Assembly: GCA_964360585.1 (NCBI GenBank)
Contig: CAYHXC010000008.1
Location: 8-64,007, forward strand
Source: an uncultured Candidatus Saccharibacteria bacterium
GTDB lineage: Bacteria; Patescibacteriota; Minisyncoccia; UBA6257; 2-01-FULL-56-20
Reading direction: 5' to 3'
DNA: 64,000 nucleotides
In this document: positions 1 to 20,339 of the stretch, piece by piece
How the letters are laid out: every line of letters begins with the position of its first letter
Position numbering within the stretch: the first letter of the stretch is position 1
The notes under the pieces: generated by a model
What the model saw: only the letters and a program-made list of their open reading frames with translations
Told to the model about the DNA's origin: nothing
Database searches by the model: none
Translations under genes and position numbers: made by a program

Positions 1-658
1 AAAGTCGCGACTATTTGGATATTATTGAAAGAGCGCCGGATACTTACGCCAAAGTTTCCGCAGATTGGCGGCAGGAAAATTTCATTATGGCCGTGTCGGT
101 TATATATTTTTTGCATAACCGAGAAAACCATCCTGATTTTCTGTTTCCTTGGTTCTTTCAGCTCCTCCGGCACAAGAACGGAAATATTCTACGTGTATAG
201 GCTGGTTACGGTAATAGTTCCAATTACCCTCCTTTACTGAAGCTCTGGCGGACGAGTCGGACGGGCAAGCGCCTGCCTGCCGGTAGGCTGGTCCCCTTCG
301 ACAAGCTCAGGGTAAACCACGTCGAGAGCCTTATGGGATGAACGGACACAAAACGTCCGTTTTTCTCTATGCTTATTTCCCCTTTTTAGCATAGTACACT
401 GGACAAAAAATACCGATGTTGTCCACTACAGTGATCCAACTGGTCAAAATCAGCTTTTCCGTAATGATACAAAAGTGTCATATTACGGAAACGCAGAGTA
501 AAAAGTCTTAGTTTACTGACTTTGTGCACCTTGCCCCTAGCGTATCAATTGCATCGCCTTTTTGTGTCAAGTCGTAATACAGATATCCTTATTGCACTTT
601 TTATGGATATCTGGTAATATGGGAATACGTATTTCAACTTAGATAAAACAGTAAAACT

Positions 659-1819
659 ATGGCAAACAAAGCGCAGCAAAATCACTTTATAGCGGGGACC
701 CACAAGAAGCACTTTTGGGGCAAAGACTACGAATATCGGAGTTTTTTGCCGTCCCCGGTTAATCGCCCTTATGAATGGCAGGACAAAAGAATCCCCGTCC
801 TCTTGGAAGAAGCGATCAGACTTGTCGGTGAATTGAATGCCTACTCCATCCTTGTTCCAGATGTAGATTTTTTCATTCAAATGCACGTACGTAATGAAGC
901 AGTGAAGTCAAGTCGCATTGAAGGTACTCGCACCGGCATGGATGAAGCCGTCTTGCCGGAAGAAGAAATCTCTCCAGAAAAAAGAGACGATTGGACCGAG
1001 GTGCAAAATTATATAAAAGCAATGAATACAAGCATTGCTCGACTTAGCGAGCTCCCAATCTCAATGAGACTTCTGCAAGGAGCTCACAAAATTTTGTTGT
1101 CTGGTGTTCGTGGCGAACACAAACAGCCGGGAGAAGTTCGCACTGGGCAAAATTGGATTGGTGGCACAAGTATTCAGACGGCCGCTTTCATTCCACCTCA
1201 CCCCGAAGATATGGGAGAGGCCTTAAAGGACCTTGAGTTCTTTTGGCATAACAAAGGATTGAATATGCCTCATCTGATCAAGATGGCGATTTCTCATTAT
1301 CAGTTTGAGACAATTCACCCCTTCAATGATGGTAATGGAAGAATTGGTCGTATGCTGATCGGACTTCATCTTATTGAACTTGGAATTCTACGAAAACCAA
1401 CACTATACCTTTCTGACTTCTTTGAAAGAAACAAAGGAGCGTATTATGACGCGCTCACTTTTGTGCGTGAGCGAAACGATTTGGATCAATGGATTGTATT
1501 TTTTCTCTCGGCAGTCATTGAAACAGCTAAAAAAGGCAAGGACACATTTGAGAAGATTATTGATCTACGCGCTCGCTACGAGAAACAAATTATGGAGCTT
1601 GGACGTCGGGCAAAACTGGCTCATAAACTGTTGTTGCAATCATTCTCTATGCCGGCATTTAAGGTTTCTAATGCCTCTAAATATCTGAATGCCTCGAATA
1701 CGGCAACCAATACTCTTGTCGGAGAAATGGAACGTGTCGGAATTCTTAAAGAAGTAACCGGTTTTTCCCGTAACCGGATTTTTGTCTTGCACGAGTATCT
1801 GGAGCTCTTTAAGAGATAA
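659..1819 (+). CDS. Fic/Fido family protein (putative AMPylase/toxin-like)
   Basis: Canonical Fic motif [12 protein letters not shown] in a 386-aa ORF. Confidence 0.85.
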
Positions 1820-1908
1820 AACCATGCCACAGAAAATTGCCAAATGATCTGCAAGATAGACAACCGGACTAAATCTGGAAATTAAATTTATGTTAAGTAA
1901 AAAAAATA

Positions 1909-2481
1909 ATGATCATAACCATAAAAATTATCCTAATATTTATAGTCCCTTTAATTCTAAGTTTGGTCATTCGGTCAAGTCATCATCAAACATATGAATT
2001 TGTGAATAAGGAAAGCAAAAGAATGGTTGCACCTACGGTGCCATATCCTTATTTGTCAGGTTTGTTTTCGGATATACTGCTTCAAATTGGCATAAGTCCT
2101 TATAGTTTTTGCATAGAAAACAATTCTTTTTCAAAAGAATATTCTCTGCCCCATGACTTAGCTTTTAGATTAGAGGGTGAGGCTGAGTTTAGTAAAATTC
2201 ACTACAGCGAAAAAAAATGTATACCCATACTTAAAAAAGATGTTTTCTACGATGTGGCATGGGGTGGCTTTGTTATTCCTAATAAAGAATGGGCAGACAA
2301 GAATTTTAAATGCGATTCTGGAAAGTGTTCACTAAATTTTAAAGTTGATGAAATTGTGAACTTCAATGTTTATTCACGATTAAATTTTCCAGCACTAATT
2401 ATTGTGTATATCCTTTTAGTCGCCGCCGTGTTTGGATTTGTTAAGCTTGCTATTTCTTTATACACTTTCATCAGGCCGTAA
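1909..2481 (+). CDS. hypothetical membrane protein, markedly AT-rich
   Basis: 190-aa ORF with hydrophobic N- and C-terminal segments; A+T-rich codon usage unlike neighbours. Confidence 0.4.
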   Translation: MIITIKIILIFIVPLILSLVIRSSHHQTYEFVNKESKRMVAPTVPYPYLSGLFSDILLQIGISPYSFCIENNSFSKEYSLPHDLAFRLEGEAEFSKIHYSEKKCIPILKKDVFYDVAWGGFVIPNKEWADKNFKCDSGKCSLNFKVDEIVNFNVYSRLNFPALIIVYILLVAAVFGFVKLAISLYTFIRP

Positions 2482-2864
2482 TTGTAATTGCCGCCGCCAA
2501 AAAATTCGCCAGCCCAAGCGAGAGCGAGGCGGGAACTGCAAAGCACATACAAGTCGAATCAAAACCCTAGTAGTACAGCATCCCCGTAGCAGAAACTTCG
2601 TTTCGCTACGGAACAAGAAGCTGACTACGGGGCAAGCAACCCCGAAGCAAACGCGATGCGTTGCAACGGGGCGAGCCCCATACCAGTTCGCGACGGGTAA
2701 ACCCGCCTTTGCCAGAGGCTACGGACGGGCAGGCAAATGGTAAATTCGTGGTGCCTTACACGTTCTCGTACTTGGCAAGCAGGCCTTGACACCATCTTTC
2801 AAAAAGTGCGGCCACGAGGAGATATTCGCACAGTGGAGTCCTGCGACGAGGAGTTAATCGGTTC

Positions 2865-2873
2865 TGTTATAAT
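2865..2873 (+). promoter_or_regulatory. extended -10 promoter element (TGtTATAAT) giving a near-leaderless transcript of the NADAR gene
   Basis: TGtTATAAT lies about 7 nt upstream of the ATG at 2880. Confidence 0.35.
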
Positions 2874-2879
2874 TTCACT

Positions 2880-3335
2880 ATGCACAGATTAGATACGGAA
2901 AAACAAATCTTTTTCTACGAGAATGAGTTCTATGTCTTCTCCAATTATTCTTCTTTCACCATCGAATGGAAAGGTAGCTTATATCCAACATCGGAACATG
3001 TATACCACTCTGAAAAATTTAATGACGAGAACCTAAAAGAGCAAGTGAGACTTGCGCGTTCAGCCCATGATTCGCAAAAGTTCGCGCAAGCGAATGTCGA
3101 TAAATACAGAAAGGATTGGAATCAAATTAGGATAGGTATTATGAAAGATATCCTTCTAGTAAAAGTTGAGCAACATCCCTACGTGAAGAAGAAGCTTCTG
3201 GAATCAGAAAACAAGGAACTTATTGAAGATTCCTGGCGAGATTCATTTTGGGGCTGGGGACCAAATAAAGATGGTGAGAATCGCCTTGGTAAGCTTTGGA
3301 TGGAAATCAGGAATGATTTTAGAAATAAGGAGTAG
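2880..3335 (+). CDS. NADAR domain protein (YbiA-like)
   Basis: YbiA-like conserved blocks: PTSEHvYHseKF and WGwGpnkdGeNRLGklWMEiR. Confidence 0.7.
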   Translation: MHRLDTEKQIFFYENEFYVFSNYSSFTIEWKGSLYPTSEHVYHSEKFNDENLKEQVRLARSAHDSQKFAQANVDKYRKDWNQIRIGIMKDILLVKVEQHPYVKKKLLESENKELIEDSWRDSFWGWGPNKDGENRLGKLWMEIRNDFRNKE

Positions 3336-3357
3336 TTTTTCATAATATAATCAGGGT

Positions 3358-3615
3358 ATGTCCGAAAAAGAAACGTTGCACAAAGTGCCAGTGGATTTAC
3401 GAAAAGCTCTTACTTCCAGCGCCGCGGCGCGAGCAGTATGGGAGGACATTACGCCACTGGCGCGCAATGAGTGGATTTGCTGGGTCATCTCCGGTAAAAA
3501 AATGGAAACGAGAGGTATCCGTATCGAGAAAGCGCTCTCAAAACTGAAAGGCGGCATGCGCCGGCCTTGTTGCTGGGTCGGCTGTGGACATCGTGGTTCG
3601 ACAAGCTCACCATAA
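3358..3615 (+). CDS. YdeI/OmdA-like small protein, copy 1
   Basis: 85 aa with ARNEWICWV...KKxETRxxRIxKAxSKLKGGMRRPCCWxGCGHR signature; one of three paralogs in the window. Confidence 0.6.
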   Translation: MSEKETLHKVPVDLRKALTSSAAARAVWEDITPLARNEWICWVISGKKMETRGIRIEKALSKLKGGMRRPCCWVGCGHRGSTSSP

Positions 3616-3854
3616 TTTTAGATTTTCCTGTTCTGTTGCAACTTATCTCGGTAGATAATGGAAACGAGCGCAAAACTGAGAATTAAGAGGAGGAACCAGG
3701 AGCCGATCTTATTGGCTGACGCACAAATCCAAAAAATCCTAGAACAACTTGAGAATCATGAAAAAAGTATAGCATCCTCGAAAAAAGAAAAAAGCCCGAT
3801 TACCACATGATGATGTGATAATCGGGCTCAAGTACTTTAGAACGGAATCACCTC

Positions 3855-4625
3855 TTAGCCTTCGATGAAGGCGGAGGCAACGAGCAGGTTTCGAAGTGAA
3901 ACCGGATCGTTCTTCGAGATGACGTGGAACTGAGGGATGAATTTGGCGACGTCCGCATGACCGCTTTCGATCTGCGCGATCACTTCGTCGGCCGCACGCC
4001 CCGTGCCTTCGACGAGCACTGTCGGCCAGCCGCGTCGTGCGGAGTGCATGATCTCATCTTTCGTGATAGGCCCGCCGTTCCAGGCGATGGTACCGAGAGC
4101 CTCGAAGCCGGCGTACGTCCTCCAGTGTTCCATCATGGTGAAGTAGGTGGGAACATCGAGGTCCCACTCTGCCTTACCGTCAGGACCATTCTGGACGATC
4201 AAGATGCCCAGCATGTCCGGATTTGGCACGGTTCCGTACTCGTCGAGCACGAGACGTGAGTCCTCCTGAAGTGAGAGCATGCTGGTGCGTGGACACGTGC
4301 CCAACGCGACACACCCCGGATTTTCCGAGGCGATCAGGCCCGGCACATCGGTGACCATCGGATCCACTTCGCCGTTCGCAACCTGACGCGTGCCGCCCGA
4401 CCAAGCCAGTCCTTCGAAACCTCGAAGAGCTTTCGAGAAAAACGAAAGCATTGCACGCTTGTCATCGGGTCCCATGCCTTTGCATCCGCCGAGGAAACGC
4501 AACGCCACCTTCTTTCGCGCGCGCGTACCCATGAGAGCGAATGCGGCGGGAAGACCATCGGTCGCATTCATCACGACCAGATGCACCTTCTCGCCATTCA
4601 CGTGATAAGGTCTCGTTCTATCCAT
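3855..4625 (-). CDS. divergent LOG/SLOG-superfamily Rossmann protein (paralog A)
   Basis: Glycine-rich motifs FLGGCKGMG, AWSGGTR and WNGGPITKDEI...VLVEGTGRAAD resemble the LOG GGGxGxMG / PGGxGTxEE pattern; compare canonical LOG at 48152. Start set at an internal ATG with a GGAGG SD. Confidence 0.5.
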   Translation of the reverse strand: MDRTRPYHVNGEKVHLVVMNATDGLPAAFALMGTRARKKVALRFLGGCKGMGPDDKRAMLSFFSKALRGFEGLAWSGGTRQVANGEVDPMVTDVPGLIASENPGCVALGTCPRTSMLSLQEDSRLVLDEYGTVPNPDMLGILIVQNGPDGKAEWDLDVPTYFTMMEHWRTYAGFEALGTIAWNGGPITKDEIMHSARRGWPTVLVEGTGRAADEVIAQIESGHADVAKFIPQFHVISKNDPVSLRNLLVASAFIEG

Positions 4626-4649
4626 TATTCCTCCTCCCATCGCTGGGTG

Positions 4650-5447
4650 TTATGTTCCGGTTCTTTCTACAAGCCGGAAACGTGACTCAGTTTTCGGCAC
4701 TATCGAAAGTTTCTCGAGTTGATGCCGAAGTGACATTTCCGTAAGTTCGGCAACGTGAACATGCGGATGCGCCAGAAGAAATTCTTTATCGTTTGCGTAG
4801 CGATCGGTCGTCCGACCACTACCGCGGATAAGAAGAACTGGCCACGCACGCTTTGCCCAAAGAAGAATTTCCTTTTCGGTAATACCTCCTCCGTTATAGG
4901 TGAGTAGAAGCGACCGCCACCCGCCACCATAGGTGACGAGATGCTGAACAATCTCTGCACACGTCTCATACTCCGTGTCCCAACAGCTCTTCTGATCAAC
5001 AGAAGCCTGCACGATGAGACACGTATCCTGATTCGGATGTGCAATGGTGAAGTAGGGATCTTCCGGATTATCCGCGACCACCAGTCCGTGTTGGGTGAGC
5101 TGAAGATCGCTTTGTCGTGCGACAACCCCGAGCGTGTATGAGTCGGGGCAGAGCTCACGAACAATGGGCGCAATCTCAGTAATGCCTAGAACAACCTTTG
5201 TGGGATCACTCCGGGAACGCATCTGTGTCCCTCCGAAGAGAACTGCTCCGCGGAAACCGCGAAACACATTCCCAAAAAGATTAAACATTCCTTGAGCATG
5301 CTCATCGGACATGAATCCACAACCGCCGGTCAGTCGAACAACGACAGTGTCTTTAGCCTTCGTGAGGCTAAGAGCCACCTTTACGGAAAGCTTTTCCCCC
5401 TCGTTTTCTATATACAAGGAGGGAACGTTTTTCACAGGAAAGCTCAT
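4650..5447 (-). CDS. divergent LOG/SLOG-superfamily Rossmann protein (paralog B)
   Basis: Paralog of previous (RLTGGCGFMSDEH, LFGGTQMRS, YNGGGITEKEI...LLIRGSGRTTD); strong SD aaggaggag upstream. Confidence 0.5.
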   Translation of the reverse strand: MSFPVKNVPSLYIENEGEKLSVKVALSLTKAKDTVVVRLTGGCGFMSDEHAQGMFNLFGNVFRGFRGAVLFGGTQMRSRSDPTKVVLGITEIAPIVRELCPDSYTLGVVARQSDLQLTQHGLVVADNPEDPYFTIAHPNQDTCLIVQASVDQKSCWDTEYETCAEIVQHLVTYGGGWRSLLLTYNGGGITEKEILLWAKRAWPVLLIRGSGRTTDRYANDKEFLLAHPHVHVAELTEMSLRHQLEKLSIVPKTESRFRLVERTGT

Positions 5448-5610
5448 GGATTCTCCTCCTTTTTTGATTCTGTTTTTTGAATTGTGAAGGGCTGAAACTA
5501 GGGCACATTATCATCTAATTTTAATGTATTGTCAATACCCTGGATATACACAACCCGCGCGGTAAGAAGCGTACGTTTACGTCTGTATATTTGTCCCGTA
5601 GAATGACCTC

Positions 5611-7545
5611 ATGACCCCTGAAAAACCACATGATGGTGAGGGAAATACAGAACGAGTAGAAAAATCACACCTTACCCCTCCCGCTCTCGAACTACTTCTT
5701 GACACAGGAGAAGCGGTTGTCTGGCCGGAAAAAATCAAAAACGATGTCGAGTTTGTAAAGCAACGAGAAGAACGGAAACAACTGATTAATAATTTGGAGC
5801 GAGTCACAGATCGATTACCTCGTCCTGATGTTTCTCTCCAAAACGCCGTAGCAGAAAAGATCATTAGTGAACCGGAAGTCGCTACTTTATATGAATCGCT
5901 ACAGAAACTCCTAGAAGACCCGGACTATGGGAGAGCTCTTCTCTATATTCCTTTTGAGTTCTTACCGAAATCAACGTGGAGTGCCGAAACAACGGAACTG
6001 AAAACGGCGATAACGGCATTCACGAATATCTATCTAAAAACATGGGAGAAACTTCTTCATTCACATGACGTACGAACAAATTTTGTTGATGGCGATATGA
6101 TCGAAATAGATTTTCGCGAAGGAGATGACTGGCCTCGTGTAGTCAAAGCAGCCCACCTTATACCACAACTTTTAGAGCACGATCTCATTACTACGGAACA
6201 GATATTCTCTCTGGCAGAAAAAACTAACGATACTCTTCTGAAGAGTACTATTGACGACGCATTGCTCGTAGCAGCAGATCTTGGTCGTCTCACTCCAGAG
6301 GATCGAGCCCGCATGCGATCGTCCAGCGATGAAGCTCTTCGAGGAACGGAAAAACTATTTGATGAACCCCTTGCAAACGAAAGCAACGTTACCGGACCAA
6401 TCGATTTTCAAGTGGTTGAGCAGGAGCTGAACACCACACTAGAGGAAGCCCGAACGGCCGACTACGGCTCCGTATCCCCCAACAGAAAAACCTGGCTGCA
6501 ACAGGAAAAACGACGACACCTCCTTGCAGCGGCCAGCCAGAAAATGTATCAGGCAATTGCTTCCAAACAACTTACTCCCGAGATTGGAAAAACATATATT
6601 GAAACCACCGGCAGTGCTATGGGAGAAGCTTGCATTGAAGGCATACGACAAGCAGTAGAAGCCGCTGTGGAAAAAGATCCAGGCAAGGGACAGCAACTCT
6701 TCGAGGAGTATCGCAATGTTATTACTACCGCTTGGAAAGAAAAACGAATTGAGACTCGGGATGCGTTAGGAAAACTATTTTTCCGCCTCAATACTCTCGG
6801 TGTTATCAATACTCAAGAACTAGAAACTCTGGGAATTGCTCGCCCAAATCTGGTTGGGCCATTTACAGAAAATCTGAAGTTCATGGAATCTGAAATGGGC
6901 GATGTGGATCGAATGTTGCGAGCGATCGAGAACAATCCAGGATTATCAGAACTCATTTATCCAGTAATTCTGATGCACGGGTCACGACTTAAGGGCTATA
7001 GCGCCGCCGAGTCTGATATCGACATCAGTATTATTGTTCGCCCCGAGGTGTCTGTCGAAGAACGCGAAAAGTTAGAGAAATTATTACAAGATGTATTTGC
7101 TCACGAAAAAATCCCTGAAAAAGTGATTGAATTTTGGCTCACCGAAAAAGACGGAAATCTATCCGTTCGGAATTTTGAAAAAAACGATCCTGCTTTAGGA
7201 GAATCCTCGTTTGTTCATATCTTATTCGGCGCCGTCTGGAAAGGCGATCCGAAAGTAGTTGAAGAATTACGAGAAAAATTACTAGTCCCCTATTTTTATC
7301 CGACTGAAGAAAAACTCTACGGCCGAGAGGCGCGAGATATTTATATTGAGCAGTTAGAGCGCGATGCTCTCCAATATCGACTCATGCACAAGGGTTATGA
7401 ACGATTCTTTCCGCGATTCGGAGGTGTCCGTTCGAAGCACGCTAACTTAATTGATGGTGAAAGTACTTTCTGGGACTCTGGGTATCGACAAACTGCCTTA
7501 CAGTTGTATGCCCGTCGAGTATTCTTGCCGAAACTGCAATCATAA
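5611..7545 (+). CDS. large protein with C-terminal Pol-beta-type nucleotidyltransferase (MNT/CD-NTase-like) domain
   Basis: hGS...GxxxxxSDxD NTase signature HGSRLKGYSAAESDIDISIIV in the last ~200 aa; ~430-aa N-terminal region of unknown function. Confidence 0.6.
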   Translation: MTPEKPHDGEGNTERVEKSHLTPPALELLLDTGEAVVWPEKIKNDVEFVKQREERKQLINNLERVTDRLPRPDVSLQNAVAEKIISEPEVATLYESLQKLLEDPDYGRALLYIPFEFLPKSTWSAETTELKTAITAFTNIYLKTWEKLLHSHDVRTNFVDGDMIEIDFREGDDWPRVVKAAHLIPQLLEHDLITTEQIFSLAEKTNDTLLKSTIDDALLVAADLGRLTPEDRARMRSSSDEALRGTEKLFDEPLANESNVTGPIDFQVVEQELNTTLEEARTADYGSVSPNRKTWLQQEKRRHLLAAASQKMYQAIASKQLTPEIGKTYIETTGSAMGEACIEGIRQAVEAAVEKDPGKGQQLFEEYRNVITTAWKEKRIETRDALGKLFFRLNTLGVINTQELETLGIARPNLVGPFTENLKFMESEMGDVDRMLRAIENNPGLSELIYPVILMHGSRLKGYSAAESDIDISIIVRPEVSVEEREKLEKLLQDVFAHEKIPEKVIEFWLTEKDGNLSVRNFEKNDPALGESSFVHILFGAVWKGDPKVVEELREKLLVPYFYPTEEKLYGREARDIYIEQLERDALQYRLMHKGYERFFPRFGGVRSKHANLIDGESTFWDSGYRQTALQLYARRVFLPKLQS

Positions 7546-7548
7546 AAA

Positions 7549-7583
7549 AAGCCGGACGATCACGAATGATTGTCCGGCTTAGG
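7549..7583. terminator. bidirectional rho-independent terminator
   Basis: aaaaaaaGCCGGACgatcacgaatgattGTCCGGCtta between convergent genes. Confidence 0.65.
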
Positions 7584-7610
7584 CTAACTACTAAAAAAGA
7601 ACTGTTGAGC

Positions 7611-8798
7611 CTAGAGACTGGTCTTGGCTTTGCCGCCGATGCCGGTGAGATCTCTTCCGCCATTGCGACGAACACCGCCACCGTCCAAGTGACTCCACGG
7701 AATCGCCACACCGAGCTGCCACAGCGCGGTGATGTAGGTGAGCTCCGTCTGGCCAACACTGACGTTCGGAAGCTCAATAACTCCCAGGGTGTAGCCCTTC
7801 AGACTCTGCTCGAGCCTGGGATAGTCTGATGAAACAGCCACTCCCAGCTGCTTGAGCATCTGATCGCGATTCAGTGCGCCGACCTGTGCCGGAAGACTCG
7901 GATTCTCCAGAGCCCTCCTGATCTGTTGAGCATCATAGGCCAATGCCATGGCCACGGGAATGCCCGTACCAGCAAAGATACCGTTGATGCTTGTGATCAC
8001 AGCTTCGGCTGCATCACGGAGACCGTCGGTGGGAGGCGGAGGCATCATTCCAGATGACAAACCTCCCGCCCCACCTGCCATACTGGCAAAGACGGCCATC
8101 ATGGTTGCTGGATTTGCCATTCCTTTCTGCCAGGAATCGATCCAGCCGACCAAGAGCTCTTGAAAAGAGATTAGGGACGGCCAAAGGTTGGTATCCATCT
8201 TGGCAAGCAGGGCTGTCTTGCGACTCTTCGTCGCGAAGCGGCCCGTTGGCCCTGGCATCGCCGCGAAGATCTCAGCATAGCTACGTTCGGTCAGGGTTCG
8301 CTGCATATCCCAGAACTCCGGACTGGCTGGTTCTTCGAGCGACTCGGCATTTCGCTCCATGGCAATGACGATCTTCTCAGGAAGGTCGTAGAGACCCACC
8401 CGATTGGCCAGCGCAGCACTCACGGTTCCAATGACCGTCTCGCGGTTGAACTTGAGAACTCCCCCAACCTTCAGGGCTGCGAGCCACGAAGTGTCGTCAG
8501 GAACGGGCGGCAGGACCCCCTCGAAGGAAATCCTTGCCATAGCAGCCGCGTCGGCCGGAGCGCTCACTGCCGGCTTCAGAGCCGCCAGCAGATTGCGAGC
8601 AGGAATTCGCTTCATCCCCGCTTCGATCAGATCGGCTTCGGTCAGTGCGCCGAGGTCTTCGACCTTGGTCACACCGAAGTCTTCCTTGATCTTGGCGATC
8701 ACATTCACGTCGGCGCCGTGCTCGATGAGCTTGGCGTCGACCGGATCCACTGGGGCTGGCTCTCCCGATGCTACGGGAGTGGTTTCCTCTGTTGTCAT
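7611..8798 (-). CDS. hypothetical protein (396 aa) with Gly/Pro-rich segment
   Basis: ORF trimmed to internal ATG (MTTEETTPV) preceded by AAGGAGAA; the longer form would overlap the upstream gene by >300 nt. Confidence 0.5.
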   Translation of the reverse strand: MTTEETTPVASGEPAPVDPVDAKLIEHGADVNVIAKIKEDFGVTKVEDLGALTEADLIEAGMKRIPARNLLAALKPAVSAPADAAAMARISFEGVLPPVPDDTSWLAALKVGGVLKFNRETVIGTVSAALANRVGLYDLPEKIVIAMERNAESLEEPASPEFWDMQRTLTERSYAEIFAAMPGPTGRFATKSRKTALLAKMDTNLWPSLISFQELLVGWIDSWQKGMANPATMMAVFASMAGGAGGLSSGMMPPPPTDGLRDAAEAVITSINGIFAGTGIPVAMALAYDAQQIRRALENPSLPAQVGALNRDQMLKQLGVAVSSDYPRLEQSLKGYTLGVIELPNVSVGQTELTYITALWQLGVAIPWSHLDGGGVRRNGGRDLTGIGGKAKTSL

Positions 8799-8808
8799 GC
8801 GCTTCTCC

Positions 8809-10197
8809 TTATCTGCAGAGTTTGTCCCGTTCAGTTGGGCCGAACGAAACCAGGCGAACGGGTATGCCCAGTTTCTGGCCAAGGATCCCCACACACAGAT
8901 CGTACAATATGTCACGATCGGCGGCAGGGGCGATATCAAAAGAGAATATCTCCGGCACGCAGTTTTGCAACTCGTGTCCAAGACATTCTTGAAAGGATAG
9001 TCGGGACAGATCCTCACCATGCCGCACACGCAATTCGCCGCTTGGCGTAAAATACGTAAAATCATCGGCACCTGAGTATCTGTCTGAGAGTGACCAGATT
9101 TTATTTTTCTGGATCTGATCAAACCAGGTTACGGCGAGACCGTCGAAGGCTTTAGTGCCGCCACACGCCTCGATGGCGTATCGCAACAACACCAGGTCGA
9201 GTGGACCCACTCGAGCTTTGCCTTGATAACGATTCTCTACCTTGTTGCTGCCCGGCAAGAGCTGCTCGCTCATGGCCGGATCAGCGGTTGGCATCGGTCC
9301 TGCTCCGTGGCGTATCTGATACGCCCGAGTGACGCCGATTTTTATCACCTCTCCACTGTATCCAGCTTCCTCGATCATCGCCCAAGTAAACTGAGGCAAC
9401 GTTCGAATGGCAGACACATGCGGATGAAAACCATAGTAGCGATCGGTGAGCACTCCGTGAGAACTCTCGACCACCACTACGCCATCACGATTAAGGATCT
9501 CTCGCCGGAGATAGTCTTGATCGACTATGTACACACGCTCCGCCGTTTCCCGAAAACGACTGACAACGTAATTCAGAAAACCATCATCTCCGAGGAGACT
9601 CAGTTCTTCCTGAACCACATCGCGGTCATCTTCTAGAAATGAACCCTCAATGATATGCACCAGATCACGACGAACGTATTCACGAATCGCCGCAATCTGA
9701 TCACGGAGGCAAGATCCCGAAAGATCTCGAGCGCGCACGGCGGTGTCAGGATAACGTTCGGCTTGCCGATACGCCTCGCCGACACCAGTACCAATCGTTC
9801 CGCGAGGATTATCCCCACGGGCCAGTTCTTTGATGCGAGAAGCGATGCCATGAAATGGCGTCGCACAGAGTGCATCTTCGTCGATAGTCAGAAGACCAAA
9901 GACTCCGTCGAGGCCACAGGCAAATTGCAACTGGGTCCCTTCGTTTAAGATACCTTCCGGCGTAACGACGAAGCGAGACGAAAGATGCGTCCTCGCTCCT
10001 TCGAAGGTGCCGCACCCCCACTGACTGAACGCGAAGCGATCGCCAGCTGAGGTTTGTACACCGTGACTTCCTTGAGCACCGCCAACTTTGATGATGGTGT
10101 GTGCTCGTCGCATCGAACTGATCTTGTGAATAATTCCACCCTTACCACCGTCACCAGGACCAAGGTCCGTGACGGTGTACAGCTTTTTTGTTGCCAT
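8809..10197 (-). CDS. adenylosuccinate synthetase (PurA) family homolog, divergent
   Basis: N-terminal GDGGKGG (PurA GDEGKGK P-loop) and VGGAQGSHG (PurA GGxNAGHT) blocks, plus PurA-like length; start set at MATKKLYTV. Confidence 0.6.
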   Translation of the reverse strand: MATKKLYTVTDLGPGDGGKGGIIHKISSMRRAHTIIKVGGAQGSHGVQTSAGDRFAFSQWGCGTFEGARTHLSSRFVVTPEGILNEGTQLQFACGLDGVFGLLTIDEDALCATPFHGIASRIKELARGDNPRGTIGTGVGEAYRQAERYPDTAVRARDLSGSCLRDQIAAIREYVRRDLVHIIEGSFLEDDRDVVQEELSLLGDDGFLNYVVSRFRETAERVYIVDQDYLRREILNRDGVVVVESSHGVLTDRYYGFHPHVSAIRTLPQFTWAMIEEAGYSGEVIKIGVTRAYQIRHGAGPMPTADPAMSEQLLPGSNKVENRYQGKARVGPLDLVLLRYAIEACGGTKAFDGLAVTWFDQIQKNKIWSLSDRYSGADDFTYFTPSGELRVRHGEDLSRLSFQECLGHELQNCVPEIFSFDIAPAADRDILYDLCVGILGQKLGIPVRLVSFGPTERDKLCR

Positions 10198-10233
10198 ACC
10201 ATCACGTCCTTGATCCTGGTTGAGGGTCAACCC

Positions 10234-11367
10234 TTAGAGCCAACCGCCGTCGGGCTTGGTAGCAGTAGATTTACCCTTCTTCTTCGACAAACCGCCAAGT
10301 TCGGCGGCTTCGTCCGCATTGACCGGCCAGAGGTCGGTTTTGGTGTGGAAGATGTCACCTTTCTTTGGCTGCCTGTTGAAGTTCGGTAACGCTTTCTGCG
10401 CCCCGAGTGGAATGCTCGAAACCGCACTTAGAATCATCGCCACCTCTCTCTCTGTCAGATTCTGATGACCCAGGAAATCCTTGGCCGATCGAAGATCCAA
10501 CGTTCCTTCCGTGAGACCGATGATCGTGGCCATCGCGTACGGAGCGTGCTGGACTCGAGACAGACGGATGAGTCGATCCTTTCCGTAGAGATCCCGCCAG
10601 AAAGCGGGAGCACCCGGATTGGGATCGACGATCAGGATGAAGATGTGCGCTTGCTTCGTCAGCTCACGCACGACGTCCCGTGTTTCGGGAAGGTCGCGCG
10701 GATCAATCTCGTAACCGTTCTCTTTGACCTTGTCGAACACCTCAGATCCGTAGATCTGCTTCAGAGCGGCCGCCTCCAGTCTTTCGCGTGCCGGCGCATC
10801 GGTGATCGTGAAGTCGTACGACTTCAGACCAATCAGCCGTTGGTAGGCGCGGGTCAAGTAGGCAGCCCCGAAAAGTCCGTAGTGCGGATCTTCGGGTATG
10901 TCGCCGCCTTGTCGGATCGGGTTCATCAGAGTCAGCTGATTGACCATCCGATCGGCCAGCACTTCGAACTGTCCACGACACATGATGAATTGGTCGTCGA
11001 CATCATTGAAGACACCCGCACAGTAGAACGGATCTCGTCCAGAAAGCACTTCGGCGACGGGCTCGCACAATGCCGGCAAAGCCGCCAAGGCCAAGTCCAC
11101 ATTGTCGCCCATCGACGATGTCGTATCGAGACGATACTCGATCGAAACTGGCGAACCGACAGCGACCTCGAAGAGGCCGTCCGATCGGTCGAGGAGACGA
11201 ATCCGCGAAGGACGGATGACCCCGTACTGAGCTGGATCAACCAGCGGGTCGAGCTTGCCGGTTTTCTTGACCGTTTGCTCCCCACGCACGGTTACTGCAG
11301 CTCCCCTGGTCGTCAGCTTTGACGTCGTTTCCTCGAATGTAGTTCTCGAAAAACCACCTTTGGCCAT
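10234..11367 (-). CDS. vWA-like domain protein (TerY-like)
   Basis: Putative MIDAS-like D-T-T-S-S-M after a hydrophobic strand; start at M3 with GAGGAG SD. Confidence 0.4.
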   Translation of the reverse strand: MAKGGFSRTTFEETTSKLTTRGAAVTVRGEQTVKKTGKLDPLVDPAQYGVIRPSRIRLLDRSDGLFEVAVGSPVSIEYRLDTTSSMGDNVDLALAALPALCEPVAEVLSGRDPFYCAGVFNDVDDQFIMCRGQFEVLADRMVNQLTLMNPIRQGGDIPEDPHYGLFGAAYLTRAYQRLIGLKSYDFTITDAPARERLEAAALKQIYGSEVFDKVKENGYEIDPRDLPETRDVVRELTKQAHIFILIVDPNPGAPAFWRDLYGKDRLIRLSRVQHAPYAMATIIGLTEGTLDLRSAKDFLGHQNLTEREVAMILSAVSSIPLGAQKALPNFNRQPKKGDIFHTKTDLWPVNADEAAELGGLSKKKGKSTATKPDGGWL

Positions 11368-11379
11368 GTGCATTCTCCT

Positions 11380-12198
11380 CTAAAGCGGTAGGGTGGTGAA
11401 AGGATAAAATCCCCTCTCCCACAGTTGATCAACGAGTTCGTAGAAGTCCCGATGGGCTTCCTGAGCACTACGATGACCGTTCTCTCGAAGGACCATCAGG
11501 TACTCACTGTACTGATCGAACTCTTTACTTCCGTCTCCCGGAATGCCTCCTTCATCTGTGCCGCCCAAAACTGCAAAAACAGTTTGGGCTGCGGCCTTCA
11601 CCTCCTCAGACGCATCGATCCGAGTCACACCGTCGGGGTGTCGCTGGGCGTTTCCCCAGTTGAACACCAAAACGCCATGCTGGCTTGGTTCGATGAGAAC
11701 GTTGCCTGGAGTGATCTGGTTAATGGTGATGTCTGCGCCATGTGCGAAAGCGACAATCTTCAGAAGTTTGCCTAGGATCCAAACGCTGGACCGAAGGTCA
11801 ACCCTCTGTTGGTCTCGGTGCACAACGTTGTGCAAGGGCACCATTCTCCGTGTGTCGTCGATGTTCCTGAAGGCAAGCACATTGGCCCGCCGCTCCCCCT
11901 GTTCGGTCAGCAAGAAGCTGTCGACTAGGGCAGGAAAACCGAGCTCATAGTGGAGTTTACTCTCCGGGTTGGTCTTGATCTTGGTATACATCTCTTCCAA
12001 CTCACCAGCTCGCGCCAAAAGTTGTTCGAGAAAATACGCTCCGCGATCAAGCATGCCATTCTGAGCAACATCCGTTGCCACTTGCAGTAACTGCCCTTGA
12101 CCGTCCCCCTCTGGCGAGCAAAGGTACAAACGGTACTCGGGTGTTTCTGCGACACGATCGCCAACATGGTACATACGTGAACCATTTCTAACGATCAT
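11380..12198 (-). CDS. protein kinase-like fold protein, divergent (possible pseudokinase)
   Basis: Catalytic-loop-like HGADITINQITPGNVLIEP (cf HRDLKPxNIL) and VHRD, but no clear DFG Asp; strong SD GGAGGTG. Confidence 0.35.
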   Translation of the reverse strand: MIVRNGSRMYHVGDRVAETPEYRLYLCSPEGDGQGQLLQVATDVAQNGMLDRGAYFLEQLLARAGELEEMYTKIKTNPESKLHYELGFPALVDSFLLTEQGERRANVLAFRNIDDTRRMVPLHNVVHRDQQRVDLRSSVWILGKLLKIVAFAHGADITINQITPGNVLIEPSQHGVLVFNWGNAQRHPDGVTRIDASEEVKAAAQTVFAVLGGTDEGGIPGDGSKEFDQYSEYLMVLRENGHRSAQEAHRDFYELVDQLWERGFYPFTTLPL

Positions 12199-12362
12199 AA
12201 CTCTCTCACCTCCTATCCTTTCTTGATACTTGGTTAACTGAACTAAAATAAGTTATCAAAGGGCACCTCCGGTCGAAAATCCCATAAATACAGGATTCCG
12301 GCGGATGTTGCATTTAAGTATAAATTGTTCCTTTTGTCAATATTTTCTGCCATCAAGATTTC

Positions 12363-12596
12363 TTGAATCATTGTAGTTTGGTGAGCAGTTCATCGGAACA
12401 AATCCTACTGAACCGAGGCGCCGCGGCACGAGCAGTATGGGAAGACATGACGCCCCTCGCCCGCAACGAATGGATCTGTTGGATTATTTCCGGTAAAAAA
12501 ATGGAAACGAGAGGTATCCGTATCGAGAAAGCGCTCTCTAAACTGAAAGGCGGCATGCGCCGGCCTTGTTGCTGGGTCGGCTGTGGACATCGTTAA
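12363..12596 (+). pseudogene. YdeI/OmdA-like paralog, copy 2, N-terminally diverged or truncated
   Basis: Shares the C-terminal 60 aa and a ~107-bp near-identical nucleotide block with copy 1; lacks the HKVPxDLRKAL N-terminus and only a TTG/GTG start is available. Confidence 0.4.
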
Positions 12597-12696
12597 CAGG
12601 TAGACACCACCATATTTTCACAAGTAATTGCCGGAACAATACTTGACCTTTCTTATTTTTTACGTTATTTAAATCTTAGACTAAAGGAGAAGTCTT

Positions 12697-13053
12697 TTGA
12701 GAACATTAACAAAAAGTACACCGACCACAGCGACTCCATGGACCAAAGCAATCCGGCAAACCCGAGATCATGACAACCGTCTGTCTCTTATCCAAGAGAT
12801 GCCCATCGTGGCGTGGTTTTCGAAAATAAGAGGCCGGATACATCGATTGATCAAAGTAAGAGCGCGACTCGGAGACAATGCGTGGATTATCGTCGATGCG
12901 CAAGGGTTCTTTGGAACGTTGTCGCCTACCACCCTGGATGCCTGTCTGCGCACTCTTACCGCTGAAAATGGGTGGGTACTCTGCGAGTTCACAAGCGAGG
13001 CTGACTTTTACAGGACTGCACTCGCTTATCTTGAAGAGGCACGCACAGATTGA
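12697..13053 (+). CDS. hypothetical protein (118 aa)
   Basis: TTG start 6 nt after AAGGAG; terminator follows. Confidence 0.35.
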   Translation: MRTLTKSTPTTATPWTKAIRQTRDHDNRLSLIQEMPIVAWFSKIRGRIHRLIKVRARLGDNAWIIVDAQGFFGTLSPTTLDACLRTLTAENGWVLCEFTSEADFYRTALAYLEEARTD

Positions 13054-13888: not shown

Positions 13889-14131
13889 ATGGTCAGAAAA
13901 GGAATAGTACATAAAGTGCCGGCGGACTTACGCAAAGCTCTGATTGCAACACCCGCGGCGCGAGCAGTATGGGAGGATATTACGCCTTTAGCGCGCAACG
14001 AATGGATCTGCTGGGTCATATCTGGCAAAAAAGCGGAAACGAGAATTATCCGTATCAAAAAGGCACTCTCAAAACTAAAAGGCGGCATGCGCCGACCGTG
14101 CTGCTGGGCCGGTTGCGGTCATAGAAAATAA
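13889..14131 (+). CDS. YdeI/OmdA-like small protein, copy 3
   Basis: 80 aa with the same signature as copy 1; more diverged at nucleotide level. Confidence 0.6.
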   Translation: MVRKGIVHKVPADLRKALIATPAARAVWEDITPLARNEWICWVISGKKAETRIIRIKKALSKLKGGMRRPCCWAGCGHRK

Positions 14132-16214: not shown

Positions 16215-16994
16215 ATGGAACTTTATTACATTGCGGGAGGATTTGTAATTTTTATTATCCTTATTAGCACCAAACAGGTAAACCAGTTTGAACGCGGTAT
16301 CAAATTTACCATGGGCAGATTCACTAAGATTATGGAACCGGGCTGGCGACTCGTCTTCCCGATTTTCCAGTCCTATCAGAAAGTGGACATGCGCATAAAA
16401 GCGGTGGATGTTCCCGACCAGAATGCAATTACCAAAGACAATGTTTCCGTAGCCGTAAATGCCGTCATCTACTATCGCGTCTCATCGGCCGAGAAAGCCA
16501 TCTTGGAAGTAGAGAATTTTTTCTACGCCATCTCGCAGTACGCCCAAACCACCATGCGCAACATTGTTGGTGAAGTGACGCTTGATGAGCTCCTGAGCAG
16601 TCGCGAGTCTATCGCCAATCGCATCAAGGAAATTGTCGACCAGGAAACCGATGCCTGGGGACTCAAGGTGAATAACGTGGAACTGAAGGATATCAAACTG
16701 CCTGAGACGATGGAACGAACCATTGCTAAACAGGCTGAAGCCGAACGCGAAAAGCGCGCCGTAATTATCACTTCCGAAGGAGAGTTGGCTGCTTCCCAGA
16801 ATATCGCCCAAGCGGCTGCGACACTCGCTGGCTCAGAGGGCGCTCTCCATTTACGCACGCTTCAGTCCATCAACGATGTCTCTTCCGATCAGTCAAATAC
16901 GATTGTCTTCACCGTTCCCTTAGAAATTCTTCAGGCCTTCACCGGCTACGTGAAAAAGCACAAGAGCGATCTACACGAACATGAGTCCGTATAG
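16215..16994 (+). CDS. SPFH/band-7 (stomatin/prohibitin-like) protein
   Basis: N-terminal TM helix then a band-7-like core, followed by a Glu/Ala-rich region (AKQAEAEREKRA). Confidence 0.8.
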   Translation: MELYYIAGGFVIFIILISTKQVNQFERGIKFTMGRFTKIMEPGWRLVFPIFQSYQKVDMRIKAVDVPDQNAITKDNVSVAVNAVIYYRVSSAEKAILEVENFFYAISQYAQTTMRNIVGEVTLDELLSSRESIANRIKEIVDQETDAWGLKVNNVELKDIKLPETMERTIAKQAEAEREKRAVIITSEGELAASQNIAQAAATLAGSEGALHLRTLQSINDVSSDQSNTIVFTVPLEILQAFTGYVKKHKSDLHEHESV

Positions 16995-17060
16995 TTACTC
17001 GCAGTAATTTTTAAGTTTGCTATACTAGAGATAGCCCACCATCTCGGAAGGAGGAATGTC

Positions 17061-17456
17061 ATGCGACATGCGCGTTGGCTCTTGATTTTAGGACTGTTCG
17101 TTCCAATCCTTGCGCTCGCGTCGCGAGTACAAGGAGGACAAAGCATCTGCGAGTATCTGGAACGAGTACCCGACATGAGTCCGTTCTGTGATTACACTGT
17201 GGAACTGGCCGAGCCTCTTGATCCCACTTCCACCTGTCGCGAGCTTCAGTGTGATCCTGCGACGAAACGTTGCCTGGTCTACTCGAGCTGCACACATGAC
17301 ACAGCAACGGAATGTTTCAGTGTCATCGTCGACGGACTCGAGGGAGCTTGCACGGCCGATGGACATCCGATCATCGAAGTGGCCAGTTGCCCGAATTCGA
17401 GTATCGTCGGCATGTTTCCCAAGATGGTGAATCCCCACGCCGTCTGCGCCCGCTAA
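17061..17456 (+). CDS. secreted cysteine-rich protein
   Basis: Signal peptide, ~12 Cys. Confidence 0.5.
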   Translation: MRHARWLLILGLFVPILALASRVQGGQSICEYLERVPDMSPFCDYTVELAEPLDPTSTCRELQCDPATKRCLVYSSCTHDTATECFSVIVDGLEGACTADGHPIIEVASCPNSSIVGMFPKMVNPHAVCAR

Positions 17457-18498: not shown

Positions 18499-19152
18499 AT
18501 GCGGCAAGTCACCGATGATTTCTTGGAGAAGATCAGACCGTATGTAAATCTGCATGAGAAACGAGTGCTCGAGATCGGCTGTGGCAACGGATCGCGATCG
18601 GTCGAGATCGCCGCCCTGTGTCAGTCTCTCATAGCCATCGAGCCAAATGTTGAACTTTTCACTACGGCTTGTAGCGAAAATCTACGACCGAACATCACCT
18701 ACGGACTCGACTCGATTTTGCGTTTCCCGTACGATCCAAGATCGTTTGATGTGACCATATTCACACTCTCGCTCCATCATATTCCGGAGGAGCTGATGGC
18801 GAGGGCCATTGACCGAGCAGTGGAAGCCACACATCCTGAAGGAGCAATCATCTTCCTCGAACCGTGGTTCTTGGGACCATTTTTCTCGGCAGAACAACAG
18901 TTCGATGCGTGCGATGGCGACGAGCGAGCAAACAAAGCCGCCGCTTACCGCGCCATTCTCAACCACCCTCGCCTTGAGGAACAGGTTGAGATCACCGGCC
19001 AGACCACCTTCCAGTTCGATTCTCCTCAGGATTTCATGGACTCAATGCGTCCTCAGCGCAACACCGAAAGAGTCATTGCTTTCCTCCGAAAACACAAATA
19101 CCAACTGAAGGCGCCGCGACGGATTACCGTTTGTACACCAGCCGCTCGTTAA
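18499..19152 (+). CDS. class I SAM-dependent methyltransferase
   Basis: Motif I VLEIGCGNGSRS. Confidence 0.7.
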   Translation: MRQVTDDFLEKIRPYVNLHEKRVLEIGCGNGSRSVEIAALCQSLIAIEPNVELFTTACSENLRPNITYGLDSILRFPYDPRSFDVTIFTLSLHHIPEELMARAIDRAVEATHPEGAIIFLEPWFLGPFFSAEQQFDACDGDERANKAAAYRAILNHPRLEEQVEITGQTTFQFDSPQDFMDSMRPQRNTERVIAFLRKHKYQLKAPRRITVCTPAAR

Positions 19153-19174
19153 CACCAGCGGCTTTTTTATTTAA
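19141..19174 (+). terminator. rho-independent terminator
   Basis: GCCGCTcgttaacaccAGCGGC + TTTTTTATTT. Confidence 0.6.
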
Positions 19175-19342
19175 CTAGAACCCATCTCAAAAATAGAATC
19201 ACGCAGTCTTCCGGCTAGATTCGGCTATAAACCCACCCGACCCTCCTTGAAATACCATAGGGTATTCCTGTCTCGGGTCGGATGGTTCTCGCTCGAATCT
19301 ATCACGGAATACCCCTGTGCCTATTTTTGAGATGGGTTCTAG
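19175..19342. mobile_element. MITE-like palindromic element, copy A (168 bp, 21-bp perfect TIRs CTAGAACCCATCTCAAAAATA)
   Basis: Perfect terminal inverted repeats, long imperfect internal palindrome, no coding capacity. Confidence 0.7.
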
Positions 19343-19405
19343 GCTCCCACCGGCGGAGGACAAAACCCTTGGAACCGAATGGTAGATTTTTGAGATGGGT
19401 TCTAA
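19343..19405. repeat. partial MITE-like copy (one TIR plus ~40 bp) abutting copy A
   Basis: gatttttgagatgggttctaa repeats the TIR; overlaps the stop codon of the downstream minus-strand gene. Confidence 0.55.
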
Positions 19406-20121
19406 TATCCAGTAAAATCCTCGCTTCGTACCATATCCGGATCGATACCGAGATCACGCGTAACCCGTCGCATCGCCCCAACCATGGCCGCCGGTCCAAC
19501 CAGATAGTACACTGCATTGGGTTCAGAAATATATTTTTTAACCATCTCCGCATTTACATAACCCGTTTTTCCTGTCCAAGTTTGTTGCGACTTATCCATC
19601 TCGGTCATCGTGCCGATAAACGTGTAGTTCGAATTTTTACTTTGTAATTCTTGAAGTTCGGATAAAAACGGTGCGTCCTCGGGACGGCGGTTTGAATAAA
19701 ATAAAAATAACTTGTGCGGCTTATGCTCTTGAGCTGCCACAATCAGCATCGAACGAACAGGCGTAATCCCAATCCCGCCGATTAAAAAAACGGCTGGACG
19801 TGTCACATTCTCATGGAGAACAAAATCGCCATACGGACCTTCGAATATAACTGCACTGCCGAGCGGCAGATTTTTTAAAACCCGCTTGAAGGCAGTGTCT
19901 CGCATACGTGTCGCAATCATAATACGCGGCTCGTGCGGCGCGCTGGCAATGGAAAACTGGCGGGAGTTTCCTTCGCCGTCGGTTTCAGGTGGATTAATTA
20001 AAGTTATTTCGCAAAACTGTCCGGCCACAAAAGAAAAACCGGCCGGCTTCTCAAAATAAAAAGCCATTGTCCCCTCGGCTATTTCTTTCCGGTTGATCAA
20101 TTTTACCGTATATCTAGCCAT
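19402..20121 (-). CDS. ferredoxin-NADP+ reductase-like FAD/NAD(P)-binding oxidoreductase
   Basis: RQFSIAS (RxYS FAD motif) and GGIGITP NAD-binding motif. Confidence 0.75.
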   Translation of the reverse strand: MARYTVKLINRKEIAEGTMAFYFEKPAGFSFVAGQFCEITLINPPETDGEGNSRQFSIASAPHEPRIMIATRMRDTAFKRVLKNLPLGSAVIFEGPYGDFVLHENVTRPAVFLIGGIGITPVRSMLIVAAQEHKPHKLFLFYSNRRPEDAPFLSELQELQSKNSNYTFIGTMTEMDKSQQTWTGKTGYVNAEMVKKYISEPNAVYYLVGPAAMVGAMRRVTRDLGIDPDMVRSEDFTGY

Positions 20122-20216
20122 GCTGTTCCAGTGTCATTCGGTCATTATGGCATAGGCCTTACACAATTCAATCCGAACGGATATGCTATACTTTCAATAG
20201 ATTGAAGGAGGTGGCT

Positions 20217-20339
20217 TATGTTGAAGTTGACATGGCTCCCCAACTGGCAAGCTTACGCTGTTCGCTGGAACGGAAAAAATCTGGGGATGGTGCGTTGCCA
20301 GGTCCCACTTCCGTTCCGTTCGCCAGTAACCTTCGCTTA
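20217..20339 (+). CDS. small W-rich peptide (40 aa) with strong SD and terminator
   Basis: AGGAGGTG 4 nt before the ATG; MLKLTWLPNWQAYAVRWNGKNLGMVRCQVPLPFRSPVTFA; terminator 20 nt downstream. Confidence 0.35.

Follow-up and report, generated by a model that had tools for sequence, protein, structure and literature searches.

What kind of enzyme is a 644-amino acid protein that joins a small nucleotidyltransferase (NTase) core to a much larger helical region, and with which partners does it work? This question is raised by a 64,000-nucleotide stretch of DNA from an uncultured Candidatus Saccharibacteria bacterium (assembly GCA_964360585.1, contig CAYHXC010000008.1; hereafter the window), in which the protein is encoded by a single open reading frame (ORF). 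We conclude with high confidence that the ORF represents a new family of the Pol-beta NTase superfamily, consisting of a family-exclusive helical N-terminal domain, a dispensable linker and a GS/DxD core with a helical cap. In the same conclusion, it is the signature gene of a module that is restricted to Patescibacteria, ultra-small bacteria of groundwater, and has a convergent partner operon, which is often embedded among NAD-salvage genes and provided with a predicted NrtR operator, and which has a triad of genes in common with Bixzunavirus phages. The assignment to a new family and architecture, within an undescribed regulon-linked module, follows from two observations: the protein falls outside the MntA, CD-NTase, GlnE/GlnD, RlaP and NadD families, and the searchable literature yielded no description of the NTase family, its N-terminal domain, the five-gene module or the phage triad. 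Statements about function that go beyond homology and genomic context are what we infer.

The nucleotidyltransferase and its family

The ORF is a real gene and not a chance reading frame, given its full-length homologues (38 clusters, 31-50% identity) and an independent gene call, identical at 644 residues, in the source contig, itself part of a metagenome from the Hainich aquifer (0.1 µm fraction). In an exhaustive profile search the family amounted to 568 representative clusters (50% identity), of which 476 reached E<=1e-30; the boundary of the family is sharp, and its members are nearly always 580-660 residues long. We counted residue conservation over 178 family sequences and used a smaller alignment of 31 sequences alongside. 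An AlphaFold2 model built from 31 homologues (predicted local distance difference test score, pLDDT, 87; predicted template modelling score, pTM, 0.88) divides the protein into four regions (Table 1).

The N-terminal domain contains the near-invariant motif LYxPFE (Y112, P114, E116), the near-invariant residues W145, R155, G161, D162, K179, H182 and P185, and the motif PRVVKAAHLIP; the loop from R155 to D162 is the sole conserved segment that is modelled poorly. Beyond this domain, R292 and W295 are near-invariant as well. A profile search with residues 20-250 retrieved only fragments of the same NTase family and no other architectures, and Pfam found nothing recurrent on the N-terminal part over the 31 aligned members. 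Neither residues 1-444 nor residues 505-644 have a family match even at E<=10, and the N-terminal ~440 residues match no fold of the PDB or of the viral structures; this is in keeping with the original prediction, which called a region of ~430 residues at the N-terminus unknown. Residues 181-237 (positions 6151-6321) show a weak repeated resemblance to transcription activator-like effector (TALE) repeats, of the form LIPxLvExGll...LPVLaDLGll; at E 0.1-0.2 this is not significant, and we take it as a generic resemblance between helical hairpins.

The core can be placed with more certainty. Its signature, HGSRLKGYSAAESDIDISI, spans residues 456-474 (positions 6976-7032). Within it, G457-S458 (6979-6984) is found in 177 of the 178 sequences and is invariant in the smaller alignment; in the model, the pair lies on the turn at the end of strand 449-456 (strand 1), leading into helix 458-461. 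The acidic pair D469-x-D471 (7015-7023) lies, as D469-I-D471, at the start of strand 471-476 (strand 2), with D469 kept in 176 of 178 sequences and D471 in 174, plus two with Glu. The GS/DxD catalytic centre is thus, as far as these residues tell, intact, and the best candidate for a third carboxylate is E507 in strand 506-513 (strand 3). Pfam family PF18765 (Polbeta) matches residues 453-498 with 26.9 bits, which is exactly its gathering score, and matches all 31 aligned members. Among proteins of solved structure, PDB sequence profiles put HI0073 (E=0.002) and MntA nearest to it; the only NCBIfam match is likewise to MntA (NF047752, residues 452-497), with 23.7 bits against a cut-off of 60. 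When the C-terminal module was modelled separately (pLDDT 76), its best Foldseek match was the MNT antitoxin 8xeo (prob 0.95, TMt 0.53), followed by the Sulfolobus NTase 2rff (prob 0.94), HEPN-MNT complexes, CdnE and AAD(9). Searches with the full-length model returned only ARM/HEAT-like noise from PDB folds (TM<=0.17) and, from the viral structures of BFVD, only a Catovirus Polbeta-domain protein (prob 0.97 over 90 columns), with nothing significant.

Membership of the Pol-beta superfamily (PF18765/PF01909) thus rests on an hG[GS] motif, an [DE]h[DE]h pair, a profile score that equals the curated cut-off and a fold of the alpha/beta NTase type, and on this point the original prediction holds: the PF18765, PDB-profile and fold matches and the conservation of DxD and GS all lie in the C-terminal part. 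Its placement of the NTase at the C-terminus itself needs amending, since the core (here about residues 449-546) is followed by a helical subdomain of about 100 residues (547-644), in which E583, R590, H593, D615, D622 and R626 are near-invariant. A housekeeping NTase such as GlnE or GlnD was matched neither in Pfam nor in NCBIfam.

Table 1 Features of the NTase gene, the convergent partner operon and the region upstream. Positions count from the first base of the window.
Feature	Position	Strand	Remarks
Pol-beta-superfamily NTase gene, 644 aa	5611..7545	+	ATG start, stop codon included, stop-free translation (ORF list, homologues, independent gene call)
N-terminal family-exclusive all-alpha domain, aa ~20-250	5668..6360	+	Alignments, AlphaFold2 model
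Variable helical linker, aa ~250-410	6361..6840	+	Length varies; naturally deleted in some orthologues, e.g. P0027
Minimal Pol-beta NTase core, aa ~411-546	6841..7248	+	Pfam, PDB profile, Foldseek, conservation
C-terminal helical subdomain, aa 547-644	7249..7542	+	Among the most conserved parts of the protein
Intrinsic terminator	7550..7579	-	13-bp hairpin then U7, between the convergent stop codons
Helix-hairpin-helix (HhH) protein, 395 aa	7611..8798	-	Last operon gene; Rad51-N/SAM_TNK-like (HhH)2 N-terminus, C-terminal domain without known family
PurA-like (adenylosuccinate-synthetase-family) ligase, 462 aa	8809..10197	-	
von Willebrand factor A (vWA)-like protein, 372-377 aa	10234..11367	-	Motif LDTT[S/G]SMG, resembling a metal-ion-dependent adhesion site (MIDAS)
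Protein-kinase-fold pseudokinase, 272 aa	11380..12198	-	First operon gene
Fic	659-1819		Upstream of NTase
190-aa ORF	1909-2481		Upstream of NTase
NADAR	2880-3335		Upstream of NTase
OmdA-like small ORF	3358-3615		Upstream of NTase
Two tandem LSDAT_prok SLOG genes	3855-4640, 4650-5447	-	

The convergent partner operon and its relatives

To which genes is the NTase tied? Loci were collected first from individual contigs and then from 54 species genomes, all of them metagenome-assembled genomes (MAGs) of Patescibacteria except for evident mislabels, and were scanned with hidden Markov models (HMMs). A convergent triad of genes for kinase-like, vWA-like and PurA-like proteins was present within 5 kb in all 45 loci that have at least 5.5 kb of downstream sequence, and the HhH gene was also present in 41 of these 45. 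The genomic coupling of the NTase to the triad is therefore obligate. In the window, the stop codons of the two convergent units are separated by an intrinsic terminator of the partner operon, a hairpin that was spotted by eye and confirmed by folding (-19.4 kcal/mol, z = -4.8); a consensus scan for promoters and terminators over positions 5300-12800 gave no more sites than shuffled sequences.

The PurA-like protein matches Adenylsucc_synt at 7e-32 and lies far under the cut-offs of the purA equivalog models. An alignment with solved PurA shows that the P-loop (GDGGKGG; GDEGKGK in PurA) is retained, together with the catalytic Asp and His (GG.QG.HG; GGANAGHT in PurA), GTxGxGxGxAY, RxGxGPxPT and the guanine-specificity Asp. 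By contrast, the aspartate-binding TTGRPRR loop has become NRYQGKVR, and the IMP-contacting Gln of EGAQ is replaced by His. With its catalytic motifs kept and these two substrate contacts changed, the protein appears to be an active ligase whose substrate has changed. The vWA-like protein has no Pfam or PDB profile match; its family comprises at least 726 clusters at 90% identity, those with a lineage name coming from Patescibacteria, or Candidate Phyla Radiation (CPR), and a few being labelled just 'bacterium'. The first protein of the operon has a protein-kinase fold (CK2 match, E=1e-4) and is classed as a pseudokinase because it has lost both the Asp of HRD and the Lys of the catalytic loop, as have all CPR versions (ITINQITPGN in the window, for example). 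GC content is 55-56% over the partner operon region (8001-12000), against ~47% over the NTase gene region (6001-8000) and ~49% for the window. In the locus L006/L026 (GCA_964538435.1, 12075-15800), the deposited gene calls run on the plus strand where our HMMs place the genes for the PurA-like, vWA-like and kinase-like proteins on the minus strand, probably because gene calling went wrong in that MAG.

The surroundings of the module point towards NAD. Unbiased clustering of all flanking ORFs brought out NrtR (NUDIX plus NrtR winged helix) in 16 loci, an isochorismatase/PncA-type protein in 10, glutamine-dependent NadE in 8 and a phosphoribosyltransferase (PRTase)-like protein of 526 residues in 6; an ABC-transporter-like ORF (8 loci) and small ORFs (5-7 loci) recur as well. 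In 21 loci from diverse CPR lineages, the module directly adjoins such NAD-salvage genes, on one side or the other. The 526-residue protein (L057 2522-4150, L022 4795-6327, L045 1983-3470 and others) has no Pfam match at E<=0.001 and contains an RPDSGD motif, typical of enzymes of the NAPRTase/NamPRT type; possibly it is a PncB, NadV or Namat-like enzyme that has diverged. De novo motif searching returned a 21-bp palindrome, TTAGTGTAT-N3-ATACACTAA, with the symmetry and the GT-N7-AC core that are published for the NrtR operator, from which the repressor is released by ADP-ribose (PMC2330246). At up to two mismatches the palindrome occurs at 21 sites in 924 kb, where ~0.24 would be expected, and a weight matrix at >=14 bits finds 59 sites in 880 kb versus 1 in shuffled DNA. 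The predicted sites precede NrtR, PncA, NadE and PRTase genes, and in 20 of 47 loci one also lies no more than 450 bp ahead of the pseudokinase gene; upstream of the NTase they occur in only 3 of 57. Where it carries the operator, as in many lineages, the partner operon is predicted to be derepressed by ADP-ribose, the product of NAD cleavage.

Outside CPR bacteria, the triad reappears in phages. Full-length relatives of the PurA-like protein (32% identity, E=1e-41) are encoded by ~200 mycobacteriophages of the genus Bixzunavirus (cluster C1), and in phage LifeSavor (MG872839; L007 4785-9320, L008 473-1339) the gene, gp265, is preceded by gp262 and gp263. The first of these bears the annotation of a serine/threonine kinase; it is matched by the pseudokinase profile (hhalign probability 98.3%, E=1e-14), has lost the catalytic Asp (HGA) and has a J-domain. 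The second is a hypothetical protein of 605 residues whose N-terminal 200 residues match the vWA-like profile (probability 92%, E=6e-7), including an LDVTGS motif; it also carries a weak Hint/intein signal. This second relation needed profiles, as tblastn found no phage relative of the vWA-like protein. The same method found no phage relative of the NTase, and comparisons of RlaP gp3 with the NTase and of gp263 with its N-terminal domain detected no relation either. In Bixzunavirus, the polynucleotide kinase gp259 and the RlaP NTase gp3 flank the triad within a few kb, the latter ~1.4 kb past the PurA-like gene when the permuted end of the genome is crossed; our literature search found no described function for this gene block. 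In the 485-kb uncultured phage LR745208.1 (L066 11932-20308), an intact J-domain kinase and a vWA-like gene are followed by a 306-residue gene resembling a pyruvate kinase barrel, with an ADP-ribosylglycohydrolase (19106-20308) close by and a Thg1-like NTase (16410-17306) 2.4 kb from the kinase/vWA pair. The kinase/vWA pair is thus the constant element and the enzymes joined to it vary, with the 644-residue NTase and the HhH protein as CPR-specific additions. A Band_7/SPFH gene lies 4 kb past the module in the window (16215-16994) and a band-7-like gene ~9 kb past the phage triad (L008 8857-9801), which may be coincidence.

What the nucleotidyltransferase may do

We tentatively favour the possibility that the NTase is a separately transcribed, protein-nucleotidylating controller of a ligase complex; protein nucleotidylation was also one of the two activities named in the original prediction. 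It would attach a nucleoside monophosphate, in all likelihood AMP, to a hydroxyl residue in one of the partner proteins, with the PurA-like ligase as the favoured target; its helical domains would dock on the partner and/or bind a ligand, and the modification would switch the activity of the module, as GlnE does with glutamine synthetase and MntA with HepT. The NTase is seen as an accessory and not as a pathway step because the triad occurs without it in ~200 Bixzunavirus genomes, with no phage relative of the NTase. The conserved GS/DxD residues speak for catalytic competence, and the linkage to the complete triad in 45 of 45 loci for a bond with these partners. Protein modification is favoured since the nearest relatives of the core are minimal NTases that AMPylate proteins (HI0073, MntA and 8xeo). 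Separate regulation is suggested by the uneven distribution of NrtR boxes between the partner operon and the NTase and by the terminator that parts the two convergent units. In addition, the large non-catalytic helical region, with its weak ARM/HEAT-like resemblance in the model, is consistent with a docking or sensing scaffold, and a parallel with GlnE acting on GlnA suggests itself because the putative target is an enzyme of NTP-dependent amidoligase type whose catalytic motifs appear intact.

Several observations weigh against such a controller. NrtR regulons typically consist of metabolic enzymes, which favours a role within a pathway. Weak matches to poly(A)-polymerase palms (17 of the 31 aligned members at E<1; GLD2 at E about 0.4) and the adjoining HhH protein leave room for an RNA substrate. 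The candidate third carboxylate E507 is a Glu in only 140 of the 178 sequences (Gln in 16, Leu in 7), every fold match of the NTase has E>0.01, and the similarity to MNT enzymes extends over no more than the ~45 residues that surround the active site. A small phosphorylated ligand or substrate would be suited equally well by the numerous invariant charged residues of the N- and C-terminal helical parts. Finally, no NrtR gene was seen in those regions of the window that were examined, nor any box of >=8 bits in its 64 kb, so that the link to ADP-ribose at this locus is made only by homology with other loci.

Another possible role is that of a small-molecule NTase in the NAD- or ADP-ribose-linked pathway of the PurA-like ligase, for example one that adenylylates a phosphorylated pyridine or purine intermediate, or that makes or re-makes an ADP-ribose-like dinucleotide. 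We consider this rather unlikely. In its favour are the position of the module inside NAD-salvage clusters (NrtR, PncA, NadE, PRTase) in 21 loci, the predicted NrtR boxes of the partner operon, a set of over 15 charged, near-invariant residues to which each of the three conserved subdomains contributes, and the presence of enzymes with an NTase plus a helical domain, of AAD(9)/ANT type, among the weak fold matches. It fits less well that the NTase is encoded outside the partner operon and seldom has a box of its own, and that the phage triad does without it. The simplest version, in which the NTase replaces NadD/NMNAT, is disfavoured by canonical NadD-like ORFs that sit alongside in the same clusters at L037, L054 and L057, and we know of no Pol-beta-fold enzyme that forms pyridine dinucleotides.

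An activity on RNA is improbable in our judgement. The NTase would then tail or repair RNA 3' ends independently of a template, together with the HhH protein, as a functional analogue of the RlaP, CCA-adding and poly(A)-polymerase enzymes that accompany the phage kinase/vWA genes. The palm matches, which are to MTPAP-like poly(A) polymerases, are weak but recurrent among the aligned members and reach E=4e-4 at best, the weak GLD2 match comes from a PDB profile, the (HhH)2 protein adjoins the NTase, and in the phages RlaP and polynucleotide kinase, or a Thg1-like NTase, lie close to the triad or the kinase/vWA pair. Against this, no RNA-binding or PAP-associated domain was detected in the NTase, RlaP is unrelated at the level of detection (hhalign probability 0.2% against phage gp3), the HhH protein is missing from 4 of the 45 loci where the NTase is kept, and the phage associations rest on proximity only.

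The original prediction had also entertained a signal-generating enzyme and had read the divergence from the SLOG pair as functional context. SLOG domains are predicted nucleotide-ligand sensors, and the two LSDAT_prok genes divergent from the NTase, with a NADAR gene near them, would in this reading respond to a second messenger made by a CD-NTase-like synthase. We regard this as very unlikely, and it is largely refuted by the statistics of context: SLOG relatives occur in none of ~55 other family loci, and the invariant partners of the NTase are other genes. PADLOC found no CD-NTase or other defence-system match, the fold match to CdnE (7x4a) is poor (prob 0.30, TM 0.27), and clustering of the flanking ORFs revealed no conserved effector of cyclic-oligonucleotide-based antiphage signalling (CBASS) near the NTase loci. 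With phmmer against the ORFs of all other loci, SLOG and Fic gave no relative and NADAR one, and the divergent SLOG arrangement is thus specific to this window. The region 659-5447 looks like a nucleotide/ADP-ribose-themed conflict islet, present only in this genome among the examined loci; its NADAR and SLOG genes share that theme, and GC is 42-44% over positions 1-4000, against the window average of ~49%. Small ORFs of the OmdA/YdeI-like ('bacteriocin-protection') kind surround the module, two of them confirmed by Pfam (3358-3615 and 13889-14131) and a third, at about 12447-12596 (+), seen by eye only. Elsewhere the window has the usual content of a bacterial chromosome, such as genes for Obg, G6PD, GpsA, PhoH, a P-type ATPase and pilin-like proteins; a 2580-residue ORF (27933-35675, -) adjoins a pilin-like Laminin_G_3 protein (25849-27906), and the stretch at 28-30 kb has a strongly positive GC skew (+0.21).

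It is hardly credible that the NTase belongs to a type VII HEPN/MNT pair as an MntA-type antitoxin of unusual size that carries the HEPN toxin at its own N-terminus: although MNT antitoxins come closest to the core in both sequence and fold, and R176-x5-H182 in PRVVKAAHLIP resembles the HEPN Rx4-6H motif, the match to the MntA model stays far below its cut-off, neither the NTase nor its neighbours contain a HEPN family, no HEPN profile or fold match was obtained, and R176 is kept in only 142 of the 178 sequences while K179 and H182 are near-invariant.

Returning to the proposed control of the ligase, the separate strands can be drawn together into one scheme, to which as a whole we give little credence. 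In it, the module would be a new NAD+/ADP-ribose pathway that is induced through NrtR when ADP-ribose builds up; the PurA-like enzyme would act on an NAD-derived substrate, with the pseudokinase and vWA-like proteins as scaffold and the NTase as gate, and Bixzunavirus phages would carry the ungated core against NAD-depleting host immunity. The chemistry would be that of PurA, in which an oxygen is phosphorylated and then displaced by a nitrogen nucleophile, and might for example join ADP-ribose to a pyridine base, so that NAD+ or a nucleotide related to it is restored. If so, this would be a fourth NAD-restoring route beside NARP1-3; NARP3, which consists of PnuC and NadR, is unrelated.

Whatever its activity, what was an orphan NTase is now part of a defined system, with a new architecture, obligate partners around a divergent adenylosuccinate-synthetase-like ligase and a predicted ADP-ribose/NrtR input, and it is linked in evolution to a block of genes, as yet unexplained, that ~200 sequenced mycobacteriophages carry. 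CPR bacteria, or Patescibacteria, are ultra-small symbionts with minimal metabolism, and a five-gene accessory module that is kept across many of their lineages likely matters for this lifestyle. Should the link to NAD be true, the NrtR regulon and the NAD-centred conflict between phages and hosts would both widen to new enzymes; should gating of the GlnE kind be true, it would be a new case of a ligase controlled by nucleotidylation.

Relation to known systems

How does this system compare with those already described? The partner operon shares neighbourhoods and a predicted operator with Preiss-Handler NAD salvage and the NrtR regulon (PncA, PncB, NadD, NadE) in many CPR genomes, yet no protein of the module belongs to any known NAD-biosynthetic family, and NadD, NadM and NadR have a Rossmann-like HxGH fold, from which the NTase differs in both fold and motifs. 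RlaP (PF10127) is likewise a Pol-beta NTase with a helical C-terminal domain, encoded in Bixzunavirus near the homologous triad, and is predicted to act on RNA ends (PMC7824862); the 644-residue protein differs from it in giving no PF10127 match, in the negligible hhalign score noted above and in its N-terminal domain, which RlaP does not have. Aminoglycoside NTases such as KNTase, AAD(9) and ANT(3'')(9) share the layout of a core followed by a C-terminal helical substrate-binding domain, and their weak fold matches span ~200 columns, but TM is about 0.3 and prob <=0.41, there is no Pfam match, and genomic context and size are different.

The closest relatives of the core are HI0073 and MntA, which provide its best sequence-profile and fold matches. 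They have the catalytic signature hGSRxKG...SDxDh in common with the NTase and, like it, no nucleic-acid-binding domain; a protein-AMPylating role is plausible for the NTase. With ~100-140 residues they are far smaller, and the NTase has a unique N-terminal region of 440 residues and a conserved C-terminal helical cap; moreover, MntA is paired with HEPN, whereas the NTase is invariably accompanied by genes for a pseudokinase, a vWA-like protein and a PurA-like ligase. The functional analogy that we propose is with GlnE, a large and mostly helical protein built around a Pol-beta NTase core, which adenylylates an NTP-dependent amidoligase. The NTase has no sequence match to the GlnE families of Pfam and NCBIfam and has a single core instead of a tandem, and where GlnE modifies glutamine synthetase, the putative target here would be an enzyme of the PurA family.

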